A DNA stretch of 64,000 nt from Anaerolineales bacterium (GTDB taxonomy: Bacteria; Chloroflexota; Anaerolineae; Anaerolineales; RBG-16-64-43): contig JBEKSY010000011.1 of assembly GCA_049516595.1 (NCBI GenBank), forward strand, positions 25,063-89,062, written 5' to 3'. Below the pieces are notes generated by a model. The model was not told where the DNA came from and did not search any database. It saw nothing but the letters and a program-made list of their open reading frames with translations. Position numbers and translations under genes: made by a program. Numbering within the stretch: the first letter of the stretch is position 1; every line of letters starts with the position of its first letter. This document shows positions 128-13,235 of the stretch, piece by piece.

Positions 128-904
128 TCATAGGTAGCCCAGGGTTTTCAGGGTCGGACCCGCGATCTCCAGGACCTGATCCGCTTCCTCCGCCGAGAGC
201 CCCATCTGGTATTTCCCGATGCTGGCCTCGTGCACGCGCTGGGTCGAGAAGCCGCGGGGGTCGACCCCCAGCCACTCCCCTAGGGCGCTCAGTTCCCGAT
301 CTGGGTTGCGCACCAAGTCCTCATAGCGGATGCAGTAGGCCTGCGCCCGGTGCCTCTCCATCGCCTGGATGGCCCGCACCCAATCCTGGGCCACCTGTGC
401 CGCCGTGTGGACATCCTTCCACAGCGGGCGATTCCGCCAGACGGTCCGCACTTGTTTCAGGGTCGAACTCACCACATCGCGAGCGTCGCGGTAGATGACC
501 AGGATCTGCAGGCCGGGCTCACGCGCGAGGTCATCGAGCCGGAAGATGTAACGGGGGTACTTGTCTCCCACAATCCGGGCTTGGGGAAAGATGGCATGCA
601 GGACGCGCTCGACCTCCCTCACCCCGATCGGGCCCCCCGCGTTCGGCAAGAGTCCCAGGAGATATTGGGCCAAGAAGGCTGCGCTCGGGAGCTTGGCACG
701 CAGGGGGACCTCGCGACCCGTCCGGCCCACATACGCGCGATAGTACCAGTTCTTGCGCAGGGCGCGCACGTGTTCCAGGTATCCGACATTAAGAGCTCTG
801 AAGTTCTGGAATTCGATGGTGACCTGGATCTCGGGATGCAGGTTGAACAGCTGGGCCAGGAGGGTCGTTCCCGAGCGGGCATGTCCCGCAATCACCAAAG
901 CCAT
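128..904 (-). CDS. P-loop (PAPS-dependent type) sulfotransferase, NodH/Stf0-like
   Basis: ORF 128..961. MALVIAGHARSGTTLL matches the 5'-phosphosulfate-binding P-loop of sulfotransferases. The ATG at 904 aligns with the start of the paralog MALLICGHQRSGTTIL, and the two proteins are collinear (…VIYRD.RDV.SST…RYEDLV..P). Confidence 0.8.
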   Translation of the reverse strand: MALVIAGHARSGTTLLAQLFNLHPEIQVTIEFQNFRALNVGYLEHVRALRKNWYYRAYVGRTGREVPLRAKLPSAAFLAQYLLGLLPNAGGPIGVREVERVLHAIFPQARIVGDKYPRYIFRLDDLAREPGLQILVIYRDARDVVSSTLKQVRTVWRNRPLWKDVHTAAQVAQDWVRAIQAMERHRAQAYCIRYEDLVRNPDRELSALGEWLGVDPRGFSTQRVHEASIGKYQMGLSAEEADQVLEIAGPTLKTLGYL

Positions 905-970
905 GCGCACCACTCCCACGCGGGGGGCACGATCCAGACAAAGGGCCCAGCTTCGCGCCACCCCGGCTGG

Positions 971-1756
971 CTACAGCCGATACCCAAACCGCTCCATGGT
1001 CGGGCCCGCCACCTCGATCACCGCCCGAAGCTCCTCAGGGGTTAACCCCTCCCGGTGCTTTCCGATCTTGTCCGCCTGCAGGTACCGCGACGGGAAGCCC
1101 TGGGGGTCCAGCCCCAGCCAGTCCCCAATCCCCTTCAGGACCGGACCGGGATCCTGGACCAGGTCTTCGTAGCGGACGACGTGGATCCGGTCGGCGAATT
1201 GGTCCATGATCTGCATGCCCTTCACCCAGCGGCGAGCCACCTTCTCGGGGGTGTCGAGCCCTTGCACGAAGCCCCGCGTGCGCCAAGTCGTGCGAGCCAT
1301 CCTCAGGGTGGAACTGGCGACGTCCCGGCAATCGCGGTAGATGACCAGGCACTGCGCTTGCGGGCTGGCCGTCAGCTCGGGCAGGTGGGAGAGGTAGTCG
1401 GGGAACTTGTCCCCCACCACCCTGGCCCGCGGGAAGAGGCACCGTAAGGCCCCTTCGATGGCGGCGACCGAGACTCGCTCTCTCCAGAAACGAGTGTAGG
1501 CGAGAAGGTAGCAGGGAACAAGAAGGTGATTGCGCAGGAAATTGAGCGGGCCCAGGGCCACGGGCACGAGTAGATTGTTGCGCCGACGGAGCAGCCACCA
1601 GCGACCCAGAATCCATCGCACGTAGACACGGTAGGAAAGGCCGAGCTGCCAAAAGTTGGCGAATTCCACCGTCAGGCGGATATCTGGATGGCGGCCGACC
1701 ACGTCGGCCAGGATCGTGGTTCCCGAACGTTGGTGCCCACAGATCAGAAGGGCCAT
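971..1756 (-). CDS. P-loop sulfotransferase, paralog of 128..904
   Basis: N-terminal MALLICGHQRSGTTIL, then VIYRDCRDVASSTL and RYEDLVQDP. The start lies 1 nt downstream of the ABC gene stop, consistent with one operon. Confidence 0.8.
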   Translation of the reverse strand: MALLICGHQRSGTTILADVVGRHPDIRLTVEFANFWQLGLSYRVYVRWILGRWWLLRRRNNLLVPVALGPLNFLRNHLLVPCYLLAYTRFWRERVSVAAIEGALRCLFPRARVVGDKFPDYLSHLPELTASPQAQCLVIYRDCRDVASSTLRMARTTWRTRGFVQGLDTPEKVARRWVKGMQIMDQFADRIHVVRYEDLVQDPGPVLKGIGDWLGLDPQGFPSRYLQADKIGKHREGLTPEELRAVIEVAGPTMERFGYRL

Positions 1757-1757
1757 G

Positions 1758-3590
1758 CTAAGCCTCGGTGGAGCCGGTGTCCATCAGCTGCTGGTGCAAG
1801 CGGAATAAGTTGGCATAGAGACCTCCGAGGGCGACCAGTTCCGCGTGGGTTCCGGTTTCGACAATCCGTCCGCTGTCAATCACCACGATGCGGCTGGCGA
1901 GCCGGACAGTGGAAAACCGGTGGGAAATGAGCACCGTCGTGCGCCCGCGGGCCAGCTCGCGGAACTGCGAGAATAGCTGGAACTCGGCCCGGGCGTCCAG
2001 ATTCGAAGTCGGTTCATCCAGGATGAGCACCCGGGCCTCGCGCGCGAAGGCGCGGGCCACCGCGATCTTCTGCCATTGCCCGCCTGAGAGGTCGACCTCC
2101 CCGAACATGCGGCCAATGAGGGTGTCGTAGCCCTGGGGGAGTCCCCTCGCCAACTCATCCAGCTGGGCCAGCCGCCCCAGCTCTTCCACTCGGCGCCGGT
2201 CGTCCAGCAAGCGGCGCCAATCCCCCAGGGCGATGTTCTCCCAGAGGGTCCCTTCATAACGGCCGAAGTTCTGAAATACACATGCGATCTCCCCGTGCAA
2301 GGCCTCCAGGGCGTACTCCCGCAGGTCGATCCCGTCCAGGGTGATGGTCCCTTGGTCGGGGTCGTAGAGCCGGGCAATCAGCTTGACCAAGGTGGTCTTC
2401 CCGGCTCCGTTCTCACCGACCACGGCCAGCGTCTCCCCGGGCCGGATCTCGAGTGTGATGTCGGACAAGGCCGGAACGCTGGTGCCGGGATAGGTGAAGG
2501 TCACGTGGTCGAGGGCCAAACCGCCGCGGAAGGTCTCCGGCCGCCGCTGGCCGTGATCGCGCACCTGGGGTTCCAGAGCCAGGAACTCGCGGAGATTGGA
2601 CACATACAGCGCTTGTTCCAGGATGGTGGCAAAGGCCCGGGTCGTGGAGTCGAGCGAGCTGCGCAGACGCGCCGCGCTGCCCCCGTAAATGGCTACGTCG
2701 CCGATCGTGAGTTGGCCCGCCACGGCGCGAATCACCACGTGCCCAAAGGCCACAAAGTAGGCTGCGGTCGAAAGGATGCCAAAGAGAAGGCCCCCGTTCA
2801 GCCCCCGCGCATAGAGCTTGCGGTCCTCCTCCTTGAAGGCCGTCATGAGCTTCCGGAAGCGCTGGATCAAGAGCGGAGCCAGATCCAGGATCTTGACCTC
2901 CGGGATGTACGCCTGACCGGTCAACCTCGTCACGAAGTAGCGGCTCCAGCGCCGCTTGGTCGTCCGCGAGTGCTCTTCGGCGAATCGCCGCCGGGCAAGT
3001 TGCCACTGGAACACCAGTTGGGGAGCGAAGATGGGCACAATCGCGAGGGTCAGGACGGGCTCGATGACGATCAGCACGGCGGAGAGGGAGGCCACCTGGG
3101 CCATGCCCGTGAGACCCGCCAGGACGGCGTTCACAAAGAGGGTGAAGTGCTGGGCCGTGTTCTCCTGCGCGCGGTCCATGATGTCCTGGATCGCCGGGTC
3201 CTCAAAGGCCGGGACGTCGAGCCGGGCCGCGTGTTCGAGAATGCGGTGGGTAATTCCCAGGTTGAGTTCGTCGAACAGGCGCTGCGAGAGGTACGCTTGC
3301 CACAGGCTGATCGCCACGTCCAAGAGCGCCAATCCGAGCGCCAGCAGGAGCCAGGGCAGGACCGCCGGGAGGGCGGCCCCCTTCCCGGTCAGGGCCTTGA
3401 GGGCCGCGTTGACGATTCCCCGAGCTGCAAGCGCCGCGCCGGCCGGCAGAAGGCTGTCGATCAAGGTGCTGCTCGCCAGCATCGCCGTTAGAGGGCGATG
3501 GGTGGCCCAGGTCAGCCGGAGCGCCCAGCGGGCGTTCTGCCAAAGCTTGCGTGGGCCAAAGTCAACAGCTGGATTGCTTTCCGTGGACAT
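1758..3590 (-). CDS. ABC transporter, fused permease/ATP-binding exporter (MsbA-like)
   Basis: N-terminal multi-TM half. Walker A GENGAGKTTLVKL, signature LSGGQWQKIAVARAF, Walker B VLILDEPTSNLD. ATG at 3590 is preceded by GGAGG/GAGGTGGG on the minus strand; the ORF track starts at a GTG at 3599. Confidence 0.9.
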   Translation of the reverse strand: MSTESNPAVDFGPRKLWQNARWALRLTWATHRPLTAMLASSTLIDSLLPAGAALAARGIVNAALKALTGKGAALPAVLPWLLLALGLALLDVAISLWQAYLSQRLFDELNLGITHRILEHAARLDVPAFEDPAIQDIMDRAQENTAQHFTLFVNAVLAGLTGMAQVASLSAVLIVIEPVLTLAIVPIFAPQLVFQWQLARRRFAEEHSRTTKRRWSRYFVTRLTGQAYIPEVKILDLAPLLIQRFRKLMTAFKEEDRKLYARGLNGGLLFGILSTAAYFVAFGHVVIRAVAGQLTIGDVAIYGGSAARLRSSLDSTTRAFATILEQALYVSNLREFLALEPQVRDHGQRRPETFRGGLALDHVTFTYPGTSVPALSDITLEIRPGETLAVVGENGAGKTTLVKLIARLYDPDQGTITLDGIDLREYALEALHGEIACVFQNFGRYEGTLWENIALGDWRRLLDDRRRVEELGRLAQLDELARGLPQGYDTLIGRMFGEVDLSGGQWQKIAVARAFAREARVLILDEPTSNLDARAEFQLFSQFRELARGRTTVLISHRFSTVRLASRIVVIDSGRIVETGTHAELVALGGLYANLFRLHQQLMDTGSTEA

Positions 3591-3647
3591 TGAACCCACC
3601 TCGTTCCTCCAGGGCGACCGCGTGCTTCGGCCCAGAGGAGCCTGGCC

Positions 3648-6497
3648 TCAGTTCCATTGCGTGACCCGACGGGCCACCTCCCCACTCAATTGCGCACTCG
3701 CCCGAAGCCATACCCCCCACCCGCGCGGTCGTGCCAGCTGCTTGAGGGCCGGGACCGCCAATTCGAGCAGGGATCTGCGCCAGCGCCTTTGCAGGGCCCG
3801 CGCTGCCAGGGCAAGGTACAGGCCCATCACCTCCATTCGCTCCTCGGAACCCACAACTCCCGCACGCAAGGCCTCCCCCCACAATTGATCCAGGTTCTCT
3901 TGCCGGACGGGTTGGCTGGACTCGAGAAGCGCGCCCTGGGTCCACTCGACCAGCTCCCGCGTGGTGAGGCGCGGGAAGTGGTTGAGGGCGTCCCGCCCCT
4001 CAGCCGTGTCTCCCTGCGCATACGGCTGCCAGACCTGAAGCCAGAAATCCAGCGCCCGCTCCGTCTCCTCCCAGGCGCCGGGTCCCATCTTGGAGGCGCG
4101 CCGGAAGACCGGCCAGAGGGCCCTCAGCCGGCCGAGCGGCACGCTCCCGCCCGGTTCGCGTCGGGCCCGTCCGGCAAGGTCGTTCAGCCATTCCAGAACA
4201 AGCGGTGTCCCCCAGAGGCGGGTGTATCCCTGAGTTCGCCCCAAGTAGGCGGCGGCCGCATCCGCCTGTCCGCTCTGGATCAGGTACCAGGAGATCCACA
4301 GCAGGGAAAAGAAGAACGCTCTCTTCTCCAGCCGGCGGATGCGCCGCGGCACGGGCTGCTCTCGGAAGAAGCGCAGGAGGGTGGCGTCTAGATCGCGGGC
4401 TTGGTGCAGGCTGTCGCGCGTGATGTTGGTAGCATGCATTCTCCGGCAGACCGTGACTGAGGGGATCCAATCGCCCCGGGATCCGAGGAGCGCCAGGCGA
4501 AGGAGCAGGTCCACATCCTCCGCTTGCACCAGCCGAGTGTCGAATCCTCCGCTGCGCTCCAGCCAATCCCGGCGGAACATCATGCCCCCCAGGAACACCG
4601 GCTTCCACATCAGCCAGCCCTCTAGGTCGAGCCGGGGAACTTCTTTCCAGGGAGTCTCGTCGGCGATCGCTTCCCCCCGGGTGCCGACGAGCCTCCAGCC
4701 GCTGTGAGAGAACCCGTGGGATCGGTGGGCAGCCAGTTGTCGCGCATGCGCGCGGAGCGTGCCTGGGAGCAGAAAATCGTCGGCATCCAGGAAAAGGATG
4801 AACTCCCCATGCGCGATCCCCAGCCCCCGGTTGCGCGCCGCGGCCGGGCCCTGGTGCGACTGGCGGACGTAGGTCAACTCCGGGGCCTGCGGCGTCAGCG
4901 CCTCGGCCGTCCCATCCGTGGACTCGTCGTCGACCACGATGATTTCCCGCTGCGGGTAATCCTGGGAAAGGATACTCTCCACCGCCTGGGCGACATAGGG
5001 CTGCTGGTTGTAGGCCGCAATGATCACGCTCACCAGACCGCTCTCGCACGGCGGCGGGCTCGCCGCTAAGGATCCCCTCACCGCCGGCGGATGGGCCGTT
5101 CGGCCGCCAGGCAGCCTCGTTCGGACCACCCAGCTGCGAGCCCCCGACCGCAGGAGACCCAGCCAGGCCCGCAGGCTGACCCGACTGAGGCCTTGGGCGA
5201 GGGCCTTCCCCAGCGCCGCCCAGGCTCGGCGCCTGTCCTGCACCTTGAGGCTGTCGGCCAACACGGCCAGGTACAGCGTCATGACCTCATGCCGCGCCGC
5301 CCCGCGCACGAGGCCGCGGCGCTCCAGTTCATCCCAAACGGCCCTCACGCTGCGCGCATCCACGGGACGGGGAGCGCCCACCAGGATGGGCACGGTGAGA
5401 TCGGTCAAGAGATGGCCGTCTTCCACGGGCTCCTTCATTAAAGAGCCGAGATCCCAAGGTTCTCCTTGGCTGCAGGGCCACCAGACTCGGCAAAACCAGT
5501 CATACTGGGTTTCAACCCGGTCCCACTGCTCGCGGGAGATCCCGGCCGCCTCGCGCAGGAGCAAGCGGGTTTCCTGGCTCTGTGAGGGTGGCACGTCCTG
5601 CCCCTGGCCCCAGGCGTGGAAGCGCATCATCCAGCGCAGCGCTGATTGCGGCGCGGGCCAGTCGGCCAGGGCCAGGGAAGCCCGGAGACGCGCCTCGGCC
5701 TGAGGGCGGTAGCCCGTTCGCCACAGGTGCCACGCCGCCCAGACCGTTGTGTCGTGGCGAACTCGCCGTTCCATCCGCTGCAGATTCCCGGGAAGCCCCG
5801 GAAGCGAAAAGAAACGATCCAAGACCAGATCCAGCGCCTCGGCCTGCACCACCCCCTGGCGCGTGAGGTTGTCGGCATGCAACCGACAGCAAAGCGTGGC
5901 CTCGCGCAGCCAGACCGACCGGCACCCCCGCCACGCCAGGCGCAGCATCAAATCGACATCCGCGGATTGGGGCAGCGTCTCGTCAAACCCGCCGGCACGC
6001 TCCAGCCAGCGCCTCTCCACCAGAGTAGCTCCCATACGGGCGGGCTTCCAGATCAGCCATCCCCTCAGGTCAAGCCGGGGCGCATCCTGCCAGGGCTCAA
6101 CTTGGCGCAGGAGAGTGCCGTCCGCCTGGACGAACCGCCATCCGCTGTGCACCAGGCCGGCCCTGGGGTTGGCGGCCAGGCGCTCCGCCAACCGCTCCAG
6201 GTGCTCGGGAAGATAGTAGTCGTCGGCATCCAGAAAGGCGATGAGCTCGCCCCGGGCCTGGGCGATCCCGCAGTTCCGGGCCGCCGACACCCCGCGGTGC
6301 GGCTCGGGAAAGTAGCGAATGCGCCCCAGAATGGGTTGCAGGACCTGGAAGGTGCCGTCGGTCGAGCCATCATCCACCACAATGATCTCCGCCGGAGGAT
6401 GGTGTTGCCTGAAGATGCTCTCCAGGGCCTCCCGGATGAAGCGGCCGCCATTGTAGGTGGCCATGACCACGCTGATCGGAGCATCGGCCCTGCTCAT
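3648..6497 (-). CDS. Tandem double glycosyltransferase family 2 protein (two GT2 + helical modules)
   Basis: Two GT2 cores. Module 1: ISVVMATYNGGRFI…IIVVDDGSTDGT…FLDADD. Module 2: VSVIIAAYNQQPYV…IIVVDDESTDGT…FLDADD. The modules stay collinear beyond the GT2 core (…HSGWR.V…PRLDL.GWL.WKP…W.ER.GGFD…DVDL.LRLA…). Confidence 0.85.
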   Translation of the reverse strand: MSRADAPISVVMATYNGGRFIREALESIFRQHHPPAEIIVVDDGSTDGTFQVLQPILGRIRYFPEPHRGVSAARNCGIAQARGELIAFLDADDYYLPEHLERLAERLAANPRAGLVHSGWRFVQADGTLLRQVEPWQDAPRLDLRGWLIWKPARMGATLVERRWLERAGGFDETLPQSADVDLMLRLAWRGCRSVWLREATLCCRLHADNLTRQGVVQAEALDLVLDRFFSLPGLPGNLQRMERRVRHDTTVWAAWHLWRTGYRPQAEARLRASLALADWPAPQSALRWMMRFHAWGQGQDVPPSQSQETRLLLREAAGISREQWDRVETQYDWFCRVWWPCSQGEPWDLGSLMKEPVEDGHLLTDLTVPILVGAPRPVDARSVRAVWDELERRGLVRGAARHEVMTLYLAVLADSLKVQDRRRAWAALGKALAQGLSRVSLRAWLGLLRSGARSWVVRTRLPGGRTAHPPAVRGSLAASPPPCESGLVSVIIAAYNQQPYVAQAVESILSQDYPQREIIVVDDESTDGTAEALTPQAPELTYVRQSHQGPAAARNRGLGIAHGEFILFLDADDFLLPGTLRAHARQLAAHRSHGFSHSGWRLVGTRGEAIADETPWKEVPRLDLEGWLMWKPVFLGGMMFRRDWLERSGGFDTRLVQAEDVDLLLRLALLGSRGDWIPSVTVCRRMHATNITRDSLHQARDLDATLLRFFREQPVPRRIRRLEKRAFFFSLLWISWYLIQSGQADAAAAYLGRTQGYTRLWGTPLVLEWLNDLAGRARREPGGSVPLGRLRALWPVFRRASKMGPGAWEETERALDFWLQVWQPYAQGDTAEGRDALNHFPRLTTRELVEWTQGALLESSQPVRQENLDQLWGEALRAGVVGSEERMEVMGLYLALAARALQRRWRRSLLELAVPALKQLARPRGWGVWLRASAQLSGEVARRVTQWN

Positions 6498-6575
6498 CGC
6501 TGGCGCCTCCGAATCCCGACCCCGGCCCTCACGCCATCCTCCTCCCCAAGCCGCTGAGCCACAAGGACCCCCCGG

Positions 6576-7454
6576 TCAAGCACCGCCGCGCATCCGTTCA
6601 TAGCGCGAGCCGATGAAGTGCGCGCCCTGGGAGAGGGCCAGGAGGGCCCACATCGCGAGCGGCGCCCTGTCCTCTTGCAACTGCCTGGCCAGCGCAAGAT
6701 GAAACTGCGGCCGTCTTCGCTGGCCAATCCACCGAGGCAGGCGGTTTCGGAGCAGCGCGCGCCGGAAGCCGTCATCCCCTCGGCCGTAGCGGAACTGGAG
6801 CCGGACGTACTGCCAGGCGGTGAGGGCGTGGTCGTGCCACACGCGAGCTTCCGGCTGATAGCCCTGCCGGAAGCCGCGCGCCAGAAGCCGATGACCCAGC
6901 TCGCGGTCCTCGGCGCCCGGCCACCGAAAGGAGCGGTCATACCCCCCCAGACTCTCAAAGACCTCTCGCTTGTAGGCGGCGTTGTTGCTGCAGGCCAGAT
7001 AGACATCCCCGTTGGGGAAGCGCGAGTAGTTTTGGAGGAAGTCAATCAGATACTCATGGCTTCTCGCCGGCACGCGTCTCGGCCAGGGGTTGAGGCTCCG
7101 GCCGGCCAACGCGTCCCAAGAACCCTCCGCGAAGGCCTCCGCAAAGCGGCCCAGCCAATCCGGGAAGGGCCGACAGTCGTCGTCCGTGAAGGCCAGATGG
7201 GTGCCGTGCGCCTCGCGGGCCCCTGCATTGCGCGCGGCGGCGGGGCCCTGATGCGGGATGTCCAGGGCGCGCATGGGTAGGACCCCCTGCAACTCGGAGG
7301 GCAGATCCGCCCAGGGGGCGCGGCCTCCATCGTTGACCACCAGCAGCTCCCACCCCCCCGGCGGGTCAGTAAGGCCGCACAGGCTGACCAAGCAGGCCCG
7401 CAACTGCTGCGGGCGGTTATAGGTGGGGATCACGACGCTAAACGAGAGGGGCAT
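6576..7454 (-). CDS. Glycosyltransferase family 2
   Basis: FSVVIPTYNRPQQL, LLVVNDGG and a FTDDDC (DxD) motif. ATG at 7454 lies 4 nt after the GT4 stop; the ORF track uses a TTG at 7478. Confidence 0.85.
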   Translation of the reverse strand: MPLSFSVVIPTYNRPQQLRACLVSLCGLTDPPGGWELLVVNDGGRAPWADLPSELQGVLPMRALDIPHQGPAAARNAGAREAHGTHLAFTDDDCRPFPDWLGRFAEAFAEGSWDALAGRSLNPWPRRVPARSHEYLIDFLQNYSRFPNGDVYLACSNNAAYKREVFESLGGYDRSFRWPGAEDRELGHRLLARGFRQGYQPEARVWHDHALTAWQYVRLQFRYGRGDDGFRRALLRNRLPRWIGQRRRPQFHLALARQLQEDRAPLAMWALLALSQGAHFIGSRYERMRGGA

Positions 7455-7458
7455 AGGC

Positions 7459-8595
7459 TTATCGCGCCTCTCGAGCAACCGCGATGGCCTGGCGGAAGCG
7501 CTCCGCCACGGCGTGCGCGTCGAACCGGTCCGCCAAGGCCTGGCCTTGGGCCGCGAACGAGCCGCGCAGATCCGGGTCGCGCAGAAGCGCGAGGATCTTC
7601 CCGGCCATTTCCTCCGTCCGCTCCGGGTTCACGACGAACCCGTCCTTTCCCTCGGTGACGTAATCGCACACGCCCGCGTATTGCGAGCACACCACCGGGA
7701 GGCCGCTCGTCCACGCTTCCACCACCACCACCCCGAAGGTGTCCTCCAGGGAGGGAAGGGCGAGGACATCGGCGTCCGCGAAGACGCGCGGCAAGCTGCC
7801 CGGCTCCACAAAGCCGAGGAACTCCACGCGGTCGCGGTAACCTCCGCGTGAGGCTTGTGACTCCAGCTGAGGCCGTAGCGGTCCCGACCCGGCCAGGATC
7901 AGGCGGGCCTGGGGCATCTCGCCGGCCACCCGAGCGAAGGCCTCCAGCAGAAGTGCCACCCCCTTCCGATCGCTGAGGCTGCCGACATACAGCAGGGTGG
8001 GCGGACGCGGCCGAAGCTGGCCGCGAGCGCGTTCCACCCTCTCCCGAAAGAGGCGCACGTCGTGGCTCTGAGGCGCCTCGTAGATGCGATCCGGCCGCGC
8101 CCCAAGGGCTTGCAGGTTGGCGCAGGCAGCGCGGCTGGTGCCCAGGTAGGCACTGGCTCGAGGCACGATGATCCGGCGGGTCAGCCTCTGCCCCCGGGTG
8201 AGCCCGCGGTCGCTGTGCGCGGTGCACTCGCTCCACGCGACGTATCCGCATCGGCGCAGGCGCGAGTACAGCAGGGCCGTCAGGGCCGGGAGGGAGTACT
8301 CATATCCGATGACCACTTCGGGCGACAGGCGCAAGAGGTGCGGGAGGAGCGTTGGGTTCACGTAGAGCGTGCGCCATTCGCGGTAGCGCGGCTTGGGCAG
8401 CCGGAAGAAGAATCCGGGCAATACCGTATGCGGGAAGGGGAGAACGTGACCGGAGAGGTCCCAGGCGCGGTCCCAGCCTCGCCGGGCCGAGTAAAGGATA
8501 TGCAGGTCAATCCCCTCCAGAGAGCTGAGGGCCGCAAAGAGCGGGATGCGATAGGGGACGATCTCGTTGTTGAGGATAACGACCCGGCATCTCAT
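7459..8595 (-). CDS. Glycosyltransferase family 4 (GT-B, Glycos_transf_1)
   Basis: C-terminal LPSLEDTFGVVVVEAWTSGLPVVCSQ…GFVVNPE (EX7E-type motif). The ATG at 8595 (MRCRVVILNNEI…) is an internal start within ORF 7459..8769. Confidence 0.85.
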   Translation of the reverse strand: MRCRVVILNNEIVPYRIPLFAALSSLEGIDLHILYSARRGWDRAWDLSGHVLPFPHTVLPGFFFRLPKPRYREWRTLYVNPTLLPHLLRLSPEVVIGYEYSLPALTALLYSRLRRCGYVAWSECTAHSDRGLTRGQRLTRRIIVPRASAYLGTSRAACANLQALGARPDRIYEAPQSHDVRLFRERVERARGQLRPRPPTLLYVGSLSDRKGVALLLEAFARVAGEMPQARLILAGSGPLRPQLESQASRGGYRDRVEFLGFVEPGSLPRVFADADVLALPSLEDTFGVVVVEAWTSGLPVVCSQYAGVCDYVTEGKDGFVVNPERTEEMAGKILALLRDPDLRGSFAAQGQALADRFDAHAVAERFRQAIAVAREAR

Positions 8596-8918
8596 GGCCA
8601 ATCCAGGCGAACCTCGATCTCGGCATGAGCGGAAGCCGTCCGAGACCGGGCCGTTCAATATGGAATCGCGAAGAGGGGGGTAGCCAAGCCGATTATACAG
8701 GGTTCCCCATCCGCCACGCTCCTCCGAAGACCTACCATGGCCGCAGGTCTCGACGGCCTCAGAGGGCAACCCTCAGGACAGCTGATGCTACCGTCGCGTG
8801 GCAGAAGAGGCCGGTCCGATCGTGCGCCCAGGCCGGAAGGCCCGATCCTGCCAAGCGGGCGCCTCTCCCTGCGGGTCCCTTCTCCCCTTGGGGCTCGCCG
8901 CGCCCTTGCCGGCCCTCT

Positions 8919-9420
8919 TCATTCTTGGGTGTTCTCCTCCCGGTCTTCACGCACGAACCCGCGCGGCCGCACGAGGCTCAGGATCGGCCGGGCGGATTGC
9001 TCGGGAGAGGTTTGAACGGTGTCGCGCGCGATCTCTGGAGACCCGGGCGGCTCAATGGGATCATCGATCCCCGTGAACCTCGTAATCTCCCCGCGCCGTG
9101 CCTTGGCGTACATCTCCTGGGTGTCGCGCGTTCCCAGGACCAAGGAGGCCGTGGCCTCGTGGTCCCATCCGCAGATCTCCTCCAACCGCAGGATCGCCAG
9201 CGGCTCGTTCTTCGAATTGCGCAGCGCAATCTCCGCGCCCAGGCCAGAATCAGGGCCCCCCCAGTCCCCAGAGCCGACTGGACAGAGGTTGCCTGATCAT
9301 ACCGGATCGCCCCTTTCCTCGAAAAGGAGGAAGGATGCCGTGCTGAGGGGCGGCGAGAATTGCACGTTCCAGCCACGAACTCCCATCCGGCCAAGCCCGG
9401 CGGGGAAGTCTCGAAAGCAA
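8919..9420 (-). pseudogene. Remnant of a second sulfate adenylyltransferase/APS kinase gene (internal in-frame deletion plus in-frame stop)
   Basis: The translation …[38 protein letters not shown]|[30 protein letters not shown]… joins the N-terminal and C-terminal ends of the intact protein at 10674..12422. There is an in-frame TGA at 9297..9299. DNA similarity to 10790-10894 and 12009-12140 is visible. The upstream boundary is approximate. Confidence 0.7.
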
Positions 9421-9899
9421 GCAGCATGTGCAGGCGGGAACTCCGCTCCTTCTCCGGGGCCGTCTGAAAGGGGGCTGGGCCGAGTCGGTCCTCGGCTGCC
9501 GCGGAGAAGGTGCAGGCCGGGGCAATCGCCGCCGGCGCCGACCCCGGCTTGGCCTATGAGCCCGGCTCCGTCCGGCGCCCGGCGGTTACGGCTCTGCGAG
9601 GCTGGGGGTGCGCGGTCTGCGGAAGGCCGAACCCTTACACCGGGGAACCATTTTTGAGGGAAGGGGGATAGCTGCCCACTCGGCGGAACCGGCCAGGCGA
9701 CGGAAGCCGCTTCAGGAGCAGGAGCCGGGCAGAGTTGGGCCAAGCCCGCGCCCGCCTTACTCGGGCTCACCACGATGGCACTCGCTCTTGGTTCGTGCAG
9801 CAGGGCCCCCGCGCTCGTTCCCGCCGTGAGCCCGGCGGTCCCGGCCACCCTTCCCGCAAGCGCAAGGGTGTGGACGGTGCCGTCCAGATCCGCGCCTCC

Positions 9900-10595
9900 C
9901 TACGAACTCTCCGACATTGCCAGGCGCAGGGCCTCTCTCCATGGAGGCAGCCTTACGCCAAAGGCTTCCTCCGCTCGCTGGCAGTCCAGCACCGAATAGG
10001 CGGGCCTTTCGGCCGGGGTCGGGAAGTCGCTGTGCCGCGCGGGCTGGATCTCGCGCACGCGATGCTCCTGCGCCCGCGGATCGCAGCCCAGGATCTCGCG
10101 GGCCCACCCCAGCCGGCCGTCCACGAGCGGCCAGTCGATTCCCAGCCGCGGGTCATTCCAGAGCAGTGTCCGTTCGGAGGCCGGGTCATAGATCTCGGTC
10201 ACTTTGTACAGCACGTCAGCGAACTCGCTGAGGACGTAGAACCCGTGGGCGAAACCCGGTGGAACCCACACCTGGCGCCGGTTGTCATCCGATAGGGGCG
10301 CACCGGCCCAGCAACCGAAGGCCGCGGAACTTCGTCGCAGGTCGACCGCCACGTCGAATACCTCGCCCCGCACCACTCGCACCAGCTTCCCCTGCGGGTG
10401 GCGAATCTGGTAGTGCAACCCGCGCAGCACGCCCTGGCGTGATCCGGAATGGTTGTCCTGAACAAAGGTCGCCGGCACGCCGAGCGCCGCGAACCGCGCG
10501 GCGTTGTAGGTTTCCAAGAAGAAGCCGCGCTCGTCCTCGTGCACGTCGGGATCAAGCAGCAAGACCCCCGGCAACTCCGTGGGCTGGATCTTCAC
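9900..10595 (-). CDS. rmlC: dTDP-4-dehydrorhamnose 3,5-epimerase fused in frame to the C-terminal ~70 aa of dTDP-4-dehydrorhamnose reductase
   Basis: RmlC core: ERGFFLETY…RGLHYQ…VPPGFAHGF…DPRLGIDWPL. The tail GWAREIL…FPTPAERPAYSVLDCQRAEEAFGVRLPPWREAL is the conserved RmlD C-terminus. No Rossmann N-terminus of RmlD is present. Confidence 0.8.
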   Translation of the reverse strand: MKIQPTELPGVLLLDPDVHEDERGFFLETYNAARFAALGVPATFVQDNHSGSRQGVLRGLHYQIRHPQGKLVRVVRGEVFDVAVDLRRSSAAFGCWAGAPLSDDNRRQVWVPPGFAHGFYVLSEFADVLYKVTEIYDPASERTLLWNDPRLGIDWPLVDGRLGWAREILGCDPRAQEHRVREIQPARHSDFPTPAERPAYSVLDCQRAEEAFGVRLPPWREALRLAMSESS

Positions 10596-10673
10596 CGCGG
10601 CATCCCTCCCTCGGGAAATGCCTCATCGGCCACCGCCCGCTTTGCTGTCCGGACCGGCGCCTTTTGCGCCGGA

Positions 10674-12545
<1,872 letters not shown>

Positions 12546-13235
12546 TCATAACCGTGGTCTTCGATCCAAATCCGGCTCAGGCCCCACGGTCAATTCGGCG
12601 ATGGGCCAGTATTCATCCCCGCTCGCAGCTACAAGGGCCTGACTCCCATGCACAAACATTTGCCGTCGCGGTAGATTGAACACGAGGGAGATCGCCAAGC
12701 TGAAGGCCGAGGCGATCCGCCTTTCTGTCCAGCGCACTGGGGATGTTCCCCGATCCACAGATCCGAAATCCAAGACAATCGACTGCCCCGATCGTTTCAA
12801 TGGCCATGCCACTTCCGAGACCCAAAGGGATAAGGTGACGACCGGAAGGAAGTCGGGCGTGAAATGGACGAGGCCTGCAATGAGAGCGATCCCCTAGGGC
12901 ACGATGACCACTGAGAGGGACCGCCAGCCGTGCCTGTCCGCAGCGGCTCAAACCGCGGAGGCTTACCCACTGCAGGATTGCGTATCCGGGAAGCCGGCCG
13001 CCCGCACAAGAAACAACAAGAAACAACGGCCCATAGGCCATTCCCGCATTCCTGGTCTCACACCCCTGGGACAAGAAGGAGTTTCAACACGGACTTGATC
13101 CAGCCCCACATGGTGATGAGATCATGGCTCCGCCCCGGCTGGGCCAAATAGAACGCGGCAACGCCCCAGGTCAGGGCGACGAAAGCCAAGCTGCCAAGCT
13201 CGGCCTCAGCGCGTCTCCATCTGGAGGACCTTCCA

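Follow-up and report, generated by a model that had tools for sequence, protein, structure and literature searches.

The 64,000-nucleotide stretch of DNA analyzed here (contig JBEKSY010000011.1 of an Anaerolineales bacterium, assembly GCA_049516595.1; hereafter the window) carries an intact bifunctional sat/cysC gene, for ATP sulfurylase and adenosine 5'-phosphosulfate (APS) kinase, and, on the same strand about 1.4 kb downstream of it, a short segment in which two distant parts of such a gene stand directly joined. The question raised by this locus is what that segment is, how it came to lack its middle, and which copy of sat/cysC it descends from. We hold with high confidence that window 8919 to ∼9258 (minus strand), about 340 bases, is the non-functional relic of a sat/cysC gene, encoding a 3'-phosphoadenosine 5'-phosphosulfate (PAPS) synthase, that was the original head of a sulfated-glycan gene cluster, lost 1122 bp between short direct repeats, and was presumably redundant beside the intact copy.

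Extent and composition of the relic

The intact gene (10674..12422, minus strand) encodes a protein of 582 amino acids with the Pfam domains PUA_2, ATP-sulfurylase, and APS_kinase. It is 100% identical to protein P0041, labeled as belonging to an Anaerolineales metagenome-assembled genome, and its closest relative is P0042 (83% amino acid identity), the product of an intact sat/cysC gene at locus L011. When window 8800-9700 (minus strand) was compared by blastn with 10500-12700 (minus strand), two matches were obtained, both on the minus strand: 9227..9121 against 12113..12007 (84/107 identities, 79%, E value of 2e-21) and 9130..8949 against 10894..10713 (136/182, 75%, E value of 3e-31). The same two repeat families (D1 and D2) were recovered by an independent repeat search, and at the protein level the pieces matched with 70% identity over 46 amino acids (E value of 2e-16) and 62% over 76 (E value of 1e-26; tblastn). 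On either side of the junction the sequence runs collinear with a single full-length homolog, and one gap lies between; its length is 1122 nt whether measured against the intact paralog or against P0042. An earlier interpretation made from the letters alone (the sequence-only reading) had proposed a second sat/cysC remnant with an in-frame internal deletion of 374 codons, and the alignment, with its two collinear matches and 1122-nt gap, bears this out.

The 5' piece of the relic (9131..9258, minus strand) corresponds to approximately codons 94 to 136 of Sat/CysC, part of the PUA-like domain. It shows 79% identity to 12113..12007 and 82% to L011 10303-10420 (118 nt) by blastn, with query residues 95 to 141 covered by tblastn. 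The 3' piece (8919..9120, minus strand) comprises the last ∼67 codons, that is, part of the APS-kinase domain and the C-terminal tail down to the native stop codon at 8919-8921, and is 75% identical to 10894..10713 and 77.6% identical to L011 11529-11742 (214 nt), the latter match running through the stop codon. In agreement with this, and with the earlier claim that the N-terminal region of the ATP sulfurylase is joined to the C terminus of the APS kinase, Pfam recognized in the relic only positions 95 to 135 of the 159 of the PUA_2 profile (21.5 bits, against a cutoff of 27) and only positions 114 to 150 of the 152 of APS_kinase. The ATP-sulfurylase domain PF01747 is absent and falls wholly within the 1122-nt gap (Pfam and blastn), and the P-loop segment of the intact gene, GLSGSGKST, also lies inside the deleted part. 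The deletion thus removed the sulfurylase domain entirely, together with the last part of the PUA-like domain and some three quarters of the kinase domain, P-loop included.

At its 5' side the homology stops abruptly, between 9234 and 9258 (codon 94 to 101, approximately), and in a three-way alignment all similarity is gone upstream of ∼9255. The sequence-only reading had carried the remnant to 9420 with gradually fading similarity (FSPPLSTA versus FSPLATF), but homology ends at ∼9258, and local alignment of 9235-9899 with the 5' parts of both relatives scored 20, against a mean of 22 for shuffled sequences. The TGA at 9297-9299, which had been taken for further decay, is indeed present but falls beyond the end of the homology. 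A separate event took the 5' third of the gene (the first ∼93 to 100 codons) and the promoter. A 14/15 direct repeat, GCGCCCAGGCC(G/A)GAA (D5), brackets the whole relic at 8824-8838 and 9235-9249; chance alone would yield about one such pair in that 4.3-kb region.

The deletion junction

Ten nucleotides, CGCGCGACAC at 9121-9130, are common to the two blastn matches. This is the deletion junction (9121..9130, minus strand), a single copy of CGCGCGAC(AC) encoding R-D-T. A pattern search placed the plus-strand sequence GTCGCGCG at 9123-9130, 10887-10894, and 12009-12016, exactly where the sequence-only reading had put it, the two sites in the intact gene being 1122 nt, or 374 codons, apart. In that gene the upstream copy (12007..12016, minus strand) reads ACG CGC GAC ACG (T-R-D-T) and the downstream copy (10887..10894, minus strand) reads GCG CGC GAC TCC (A-R-D-S), while the sites in P0042 are ACG CGC GAC ACC AAG (TRDTK) and GCG CGG GAC ACC AAG (ARDTK). 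The relic junction has one ACG CGC GAC ACC and no filler bases. Hence the repeat is present twice in the undeleted relatives, as CGCGCGAC in the intact paralog and as GACACCAAG in P0042, and once in the relic. The relic strand entering the junction reads ...GGAACGCGCGACACC, where a full-length allele would run on as ...AAGCA(T/C)CC... (TKHP).

Exact microhomology at the reconstructed breakpoints amounts to 8 nt with the paralog and 9 nt with P0042 (GACACCAAG; 13/14 with the flank included). The 8 bp given earlier are therefore exact for the paralog but a minimum estimate, because they were taken from a paralog and the ortholog gives 9 nt. When 200,000 random deletions were simulated in each of the two intact genes, microhomology of at least 8 nt arose with a probability of 2.0-2.6e-4, so that the value at the junction is far beyond chance. 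The proposal of a microhomology-mediated deletion was thus upheld on two grounds, the repeat being found twice in intact relatives and once at the junction, with P of ∼2-3e-4. One peptide motif, (T/A)-R-D-(T/S)-K, is specified by both repeats, of which the first lies in the PUA-like domain and the second in the APS-kinase domain; because their codon phase is identical, a deletion between them cannot shift the frame.

These features show that the resident copy lost its 1122 bp by deletion between two short direct repeats. The mechanism would be a RecA-independent short-homology deletion, either replication slippage or microhomology-guided end joining, two routes that leave the same sequence behind; both this enzymology and the order of events are inferred.

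Inside the relic there are two copies of the junction sequence CGCGCGACACC, at 9018-9028 and 9120-9130 (minus strand), 102 nt apart and in frame. The earlier statement that the remnant holds a single GTCGCGCG is accordingly right for the junction but missed a further copy at 9021-9028. The copy at 9018-9028 was created by three relic-specific changes in adjacent codons, from TLDT/TLGT to ARDT, and could be due to chance or to templated mutation.

State of the relic

The relic departs from its family at 9 of 45 conserved positions (those at least 90% conserved among 120 intact homologs), whereas among the homologs themselves the median is 0 departures and the highest count 5. Seven of the nine departures are residues found in 0 of the 120 homologs, such as K to Q and G to E in KGMYAK and Y to I in DDPYEPP, and a population variant (P0001) changes the invariant MYAKARRG to MYAKTRRG. 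Constraint on the sequence has been lost. Reading on from the upstream TGA, the first ATG, GTG, or TTG met is the TTG at 9185, the sole possible start, which lies inside the old LRLEE motif; the predicted product of 8919-9185 includes the peptide FTGIDDPIEPPGSPEIAR. The JGI and ENA gene callers report it as an open reading frame (ORF) of 88 amino acids with a PF01583 match. Neither a promoter-like site nor a terminator-like site nor an Rfam family was found in the region.

Several observations weigh against a dead gene shaped by a repeat-guided deletion. The frame is open for 125 codons to the native stop, with no frameshift. Between the relic and P0042, the ratio of nonsynonymous to synonymous substitution rates (dN/dS) is just 0.21; over the same 103 codons the intact gene gives 0.14. 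The excess of nonsynonymous over synonymous changes on the relic branch (20:15, where the other two branches give 15:20 and 11:15), although it speaks for a loss of constraint, is nominal and comes from small counts. The repeat structure was reconstructed from a paralog (dS of ∼1) and an ortholog (dS of ∼0.8), not from the parent sequence, and no pre-deletion allele was found among 13 contigs with an identical GT4 gene, the JGI metagenomes, or 80 GTDB species loci. Finally, the internal deletion and the 5' truncation may have occurred in either order, and the internal deletion may or may not have been the inactivating event.

The low dN/dS indicates that most of the divergence arose while the gene still worked; neutral change since constraint was lost would amount to roughly 0.04 to 0.07 substitutions per site.

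The strongest competitor is that the fusion is a functional small gene, a Sat'-'CysC peptide of 88 to 125 amino acids kept by selection, for instance because it partners or regulates the intact enzyme or because its translation carries ribosomes through the operon. The uninterrupted frame, the dN/dS of 0.21 against the ortholog, and the ORF called with its PF01583 match by both JGI and ENA would all fit such a gene, as would the fact that the two neighboring deletions, this one and that between rmlC and rmlD described below, are both in frame. However, a low dN/dS is also expected if most divergence predates inactivation, all catalytic parts are gone, the replaced conserved residues lie outside the range of the 120 homologs, and the segregating variant hits an otherwise invariant motif. 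The only start is the TTG in the old LRLEE motif, with no AG-rich Shine-Dalgarno-like sequence visible just upstream. Furthermore, protein searches and the metagenome scan revealed no similar fusion protein outside this one population; a protein word-index search with the relic, which returned short CysC proteins only and missed P0041 and P0042, was not used for this absence. We therefore consider a functional small gene improbable.

A related idea, which we regard as a long shot, is that the Sat'-'CysC and RmlC'-'RmlD in-frame fusions were favored for avoiding polarity, or that the 88-amino-acid CysC-tail peptide has a role of its own; a more modest version supposes that sister Anaerolineales lineages each lost a different member of an old duplicate sat/cysC pair. 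If the polarity version were true, translatable ORFs running to native stops would spare the downstream glycosyltransferase and sulfotransferase genes in a long operon.

Orthology of the relic with P0042

The relic is followed by a conserved block of genes on the minus strand (128-8595) that comprises the GT4 glycosyltransferase gene (7459..8595), which is its first gene, a GT2 gene, a double GT2 gene of 949 amino acids, an ATP-binding cassette (ABC) exporter of 610 amino acids, and two Sulfotransfer_1 genes (128-904 and 971-1756). The locus is a sulfated-glycan gene cluster, and its sulfotransferases explain why a PAPS synthase is embedded in it. In L011 the block after sat/cysC is the same (GT4, GT2, double GT2, ABC exporter, and sulfotransferase), with window 8623..6576 matching L011 12165-14211 at 75.4% (blastn), and the intact sat/cysC gene encoding P0042 sits exactly at the position of the relic, directly upstream of the GT4 gene.

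Sequence similarity was in concordance with position. Compared with 160 proteins, the two relic pieces scored best against P0042 (75% and 72%), followed by the neighboring copy (70% and 67%), with 118 others at no more than 58% and 67%. The tail of the relic, ...RGFVREDREENTQE followed by the stop, resembles that of P0042, ...RGFLREDREKNLQE followed by the stop, with REDRE(E/K)N(T/L)QE and the position of the stop codon common to both, and the neighboring copy ends differently; rare residues are also shared by the relic and P0042. Likewise, dS was lowest between the relic and P0042 (0.82) and reached 1.01 between the relic and its neighbor, whose DNA identity to the relic is ∼73 to 79%. The relic is thus the older resident copy of the cluster and the positional ortholog of P0042, and the intact upstream gene is the extra one.

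A dS of ∼1 between the two copies argues against a recent tandem duplication, and reading the remnant as a degenerate duplicate of the neighboring gene was rejected on the same DNA identity and dS and on the match of position and tail to P0042. A variant of that idea is a patchwork partial duplication, in which two fragments of the neighbor were copied and joined. It draws on the proximity of the genes, which share a strand and are separated by only 1.4 kb, and on the presence of both junction sites in the neighbor, but the identity to the neighbor is too low and dS too high, both pieces are closer to P0042, whose C-terminal tail and stop are shared, and the relic sits where L011 has its intact ortholog, with homology running through the stop. 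Such a patchwork is very improbable.

The existence of related genomes with two intact copies, which the sequence-only reading had suggested looking for, was not borne out, since 0 of 80 GTDB species loci contain two bifunctional genes within 10 kb. The metagenome scan made with the relic found only the relic itself. Three GTDB genomes (L068, L072, and L073) carry an extra stand-alone cysC gene right downstream of the bifunctional gene, with ∼49% identity to the kinase domain. As a candidate for reciprocal decay, a remnant of the other paralog was sought upstream of sat/cysC in L011; the only match (tblastn, 31% over 114 amino acids, E value of 0.013) contained a stop codon and gaps, showed no DNA similarity to either gene, and was rejected. 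Also in L011, a dehydratase/epimerase gene of the Epimerase/GDP_Man_Dehyd family (3124-4110) is split into ORFs of 212 and 113 amino acids, possibly by a frameshift or by a long-read assembly error.

The junction in other assemblies

The junction is spanned by contigs from 14 samples, whose identity to the window is 99.95% or higher and whose arrangement is the same. They were built by Logan, MEGAHIT, or SPAdes or taken from JGI assemblies, and were found through exact neighbor proteins and the metagenome scan with the relic. Only seven single-base differences were observed among all contigs, two of them in the spacer upstream of the relic, at 9401 and 9477. The deletion is therefore fixed in the sampled population.

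The contigs of two samples stop exactly at 9358, and a second contig from one of these samples starts at 9279 (L098, L002, and L009), owing either to a break in the assembly graph or to a minor variant just upstream of the relic. A structural variant, at which these ends might hint, finds no support in the contigs spanning the area, every one of which is identical. Elsewhere, JGI contig Ga0187861_10058488 (L092) is chimeric, with nt 1-79 representing the rmlC gene of another organism, joined at the conserved stretch coding for VLRGLH.

An assembly or binning artifact at the junction (a collapsed repeat or a chimeric join), to which the metagenomic nature of the data, the contig ends at 9358 and 9279, and the chimeric 79-nt end inside rmlC in L092 might point, can be dismissed as having a negligible probability: the junction and its flanks are identical in 14 samples and with three assemblers, a repeat of 8 to 10 nt is far shorter than the assembler k-mers (k141 appears in several contig names) and too short to collapse a de Bruijn graph, and the neighbor, being ∼25% divergent, could not have absorbed the missing 1122 nt.

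Scars in the neighboring region

Between the relic and the intact sat/cysC gene lies a second fusion, an ORF of 231 amino acids (9900..10595, minus strand) in which RmlC residues 1 to ∼160 are followed by RmlD residues ∼224 to 294; Pfam recognized positions 2 to 153 of the 168 of the RmlC profile and positions 223 to 284 of the 287 of RmlD. The closest relative at this locus is L102, whose contig ends before the position of the relic. It has an intact rmlC-rmlB-rmlA-rmlD set with ∼89% DNA identity to the window fragments: 10663..10112 corresponds to L102 1879-2430 (89.7%) and 10117..9887 to L102 5153-5383 (88.3%; blastn). Compared with L102, the window lacks 2728 nt, which hold the 3' end of rmlC, the complete rmlB and rmlA genes, and the greater part of rmlD. 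The fusion junction lies at GCCGGC, a 6-nt repeat (window ∼10112-10117), where rmlC codon ∼160 is joined in frame to rmlD codon ∼224, and this fusion arose in the same way as the sat/cysC deletion, at a short repeat, and provides an independent second case of the process in the same interval. The dN/dS of the fusion against L102 is ∼0.3 in both parts.

Further breaks flank this fusion. Thirteen nucleotides past the rmlD stop the window skips a further ∼893 nt relative to L102, into an island of 35 nt (9852..9886, minus strand; 31/35 identities, E value of 7e-7) that matches the interior of the secreted-protein gene following rmlD in L102. On the other side, 11 nt after the stop of the intact sat/cysC gene, ∼68 nt (10596..10663, minus strand) that are non-coding here match the last ∼20 codons of the ABC-ATPase ORF preceding rmlC in L102 and mark another truncation or rearrangement breakpoint. 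In L102 itself this ABC-ATPase gene (1015-1950, Wzt/TagH-like) appears broken across several frames, and is either a pseudogene or affected by contig errors.

The remaining spacer of ∼590 nt (9259..9851) contains nothing recognizable. Its ORF of 183 amino acids has no Pfam match, and the spacer showed no Rfam, promoter, or terminator match and no similarity to L011 or L102. As to its origin, tblastx against 81 loci gave compositional noise only, and Rfam gave a sub-threshold small nucleolar RNA match that is noise as well. Gene callers place ORFs of 184 to 223 amino acids on the opposite strand of the spacer, none with a Pfam match. No other rml or sat/cysC sequence was found in the 64-kb window.

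Taken together, 8919-10673 is a chain of at least four to five deletion scars, of which the sat/cysC relic is one. In more distant Anaerolineales, sat/cysC precedes rmlC-rmlB-rmlA (L045) or, at the least, rmlC (L050 and L091), an order which indicates that the sat/cysC-rml block is an old unit.

Discussion

Short-repeat deletions in bacteria arise by slipped mispairing or alternative end joining. The lacI deletions of Albertini et al. from 1982 are reportedly the classic case of deletion between short direct repeats. The relic resembles such deletions in that one repeat copy is kept, no filler is present, and the repeat reaches at least 6 to 9 nt. It differs from the usual ones in that its repeat is non-random, the same RD(T/S)K peptide being encoded in two unrelated domains. 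In bacterial pseudogenes, deletions are flanked by microhomologies, and both deletions and the spacings of microhomologies in coding DNA show a bias toward lengths divisible by three (Danneels et al. 2018, PMC6054270). The length of the relic deletion is a multiple of three and fits this bias, and although 1122 nt is large beside the small indels analyzed in that work, the mechanism is the same.

As an enzyme gene, the relic can be compared with the bifunctional SAT/APS kinase of Aquifex aeolicus (PDB 2gks), which consists of PUA-like, ATP-sulfurylase, and APS-kinase domains, in that order. This is the nearest solved structure for the intact neighbor, which matches it end to end (E value of 8e-227), whereas of the two relic pieces one aligns to the PUA-like domain and the other to the terminal part of the kinase domain. 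Lacking the sulfurylase domain, the kinase P-loop, the N terminus, and the start codon, the relic is a descendant of this family and not a functional member of it. Similarly, of the rmlCBAD operon for deoxythymidine diphosphate (dTDP)-rhamnose the window keeps only rmlC codons 1 to ∼160 and the last ∼70 codons of rmlD.

In Sinorhizobium meliloti, two copies of nodPQ serve Nod-factor sulfation, NodPQ being of the CysD/CysN-CysC type. Both systems have a sulfate-activation gene amid sulfotransferases and a second genomic copy, so that one is dispensable, but here the copies are 1.4 kb apart in one cluster, one of them has been destroyed, and the enzyme is a Sat-CysC fusion. The cluster would once have contained two PAPS-synthase genes, and the rhamnose genes and the resident sat/cysC gene lying between would have been eroded by successive short-homology deletions. 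The upstream intact copy can supply PAPS to the cluster sulfotransferases, and presumably does so; an intact second copy with this ability would make the resident one redundant.

Both the mechanism and the outcome are textbook: this is ordinary bacterial gene decay in a clean and well-documented example, and it opens no new biological question. For annotation, it means that the 88-amino-acid "adenylylsulfate kinase", the 231-amino-acid "dTDP-4-dehydrorhamnose 3,5-epimerase", and the opposite-strand ORFs of this region are best treated as pseudogene fragments or spurious calls. The relic illustrates how a peptide motif repeated in two domains of one protein makes an in-frame deletion hotspot. 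The region offers a natural example of the trimming of a gene cluster, with at least four to five deletions in 1.75 kb, two of which have both breakpoints reconstructed, both at short repeats.

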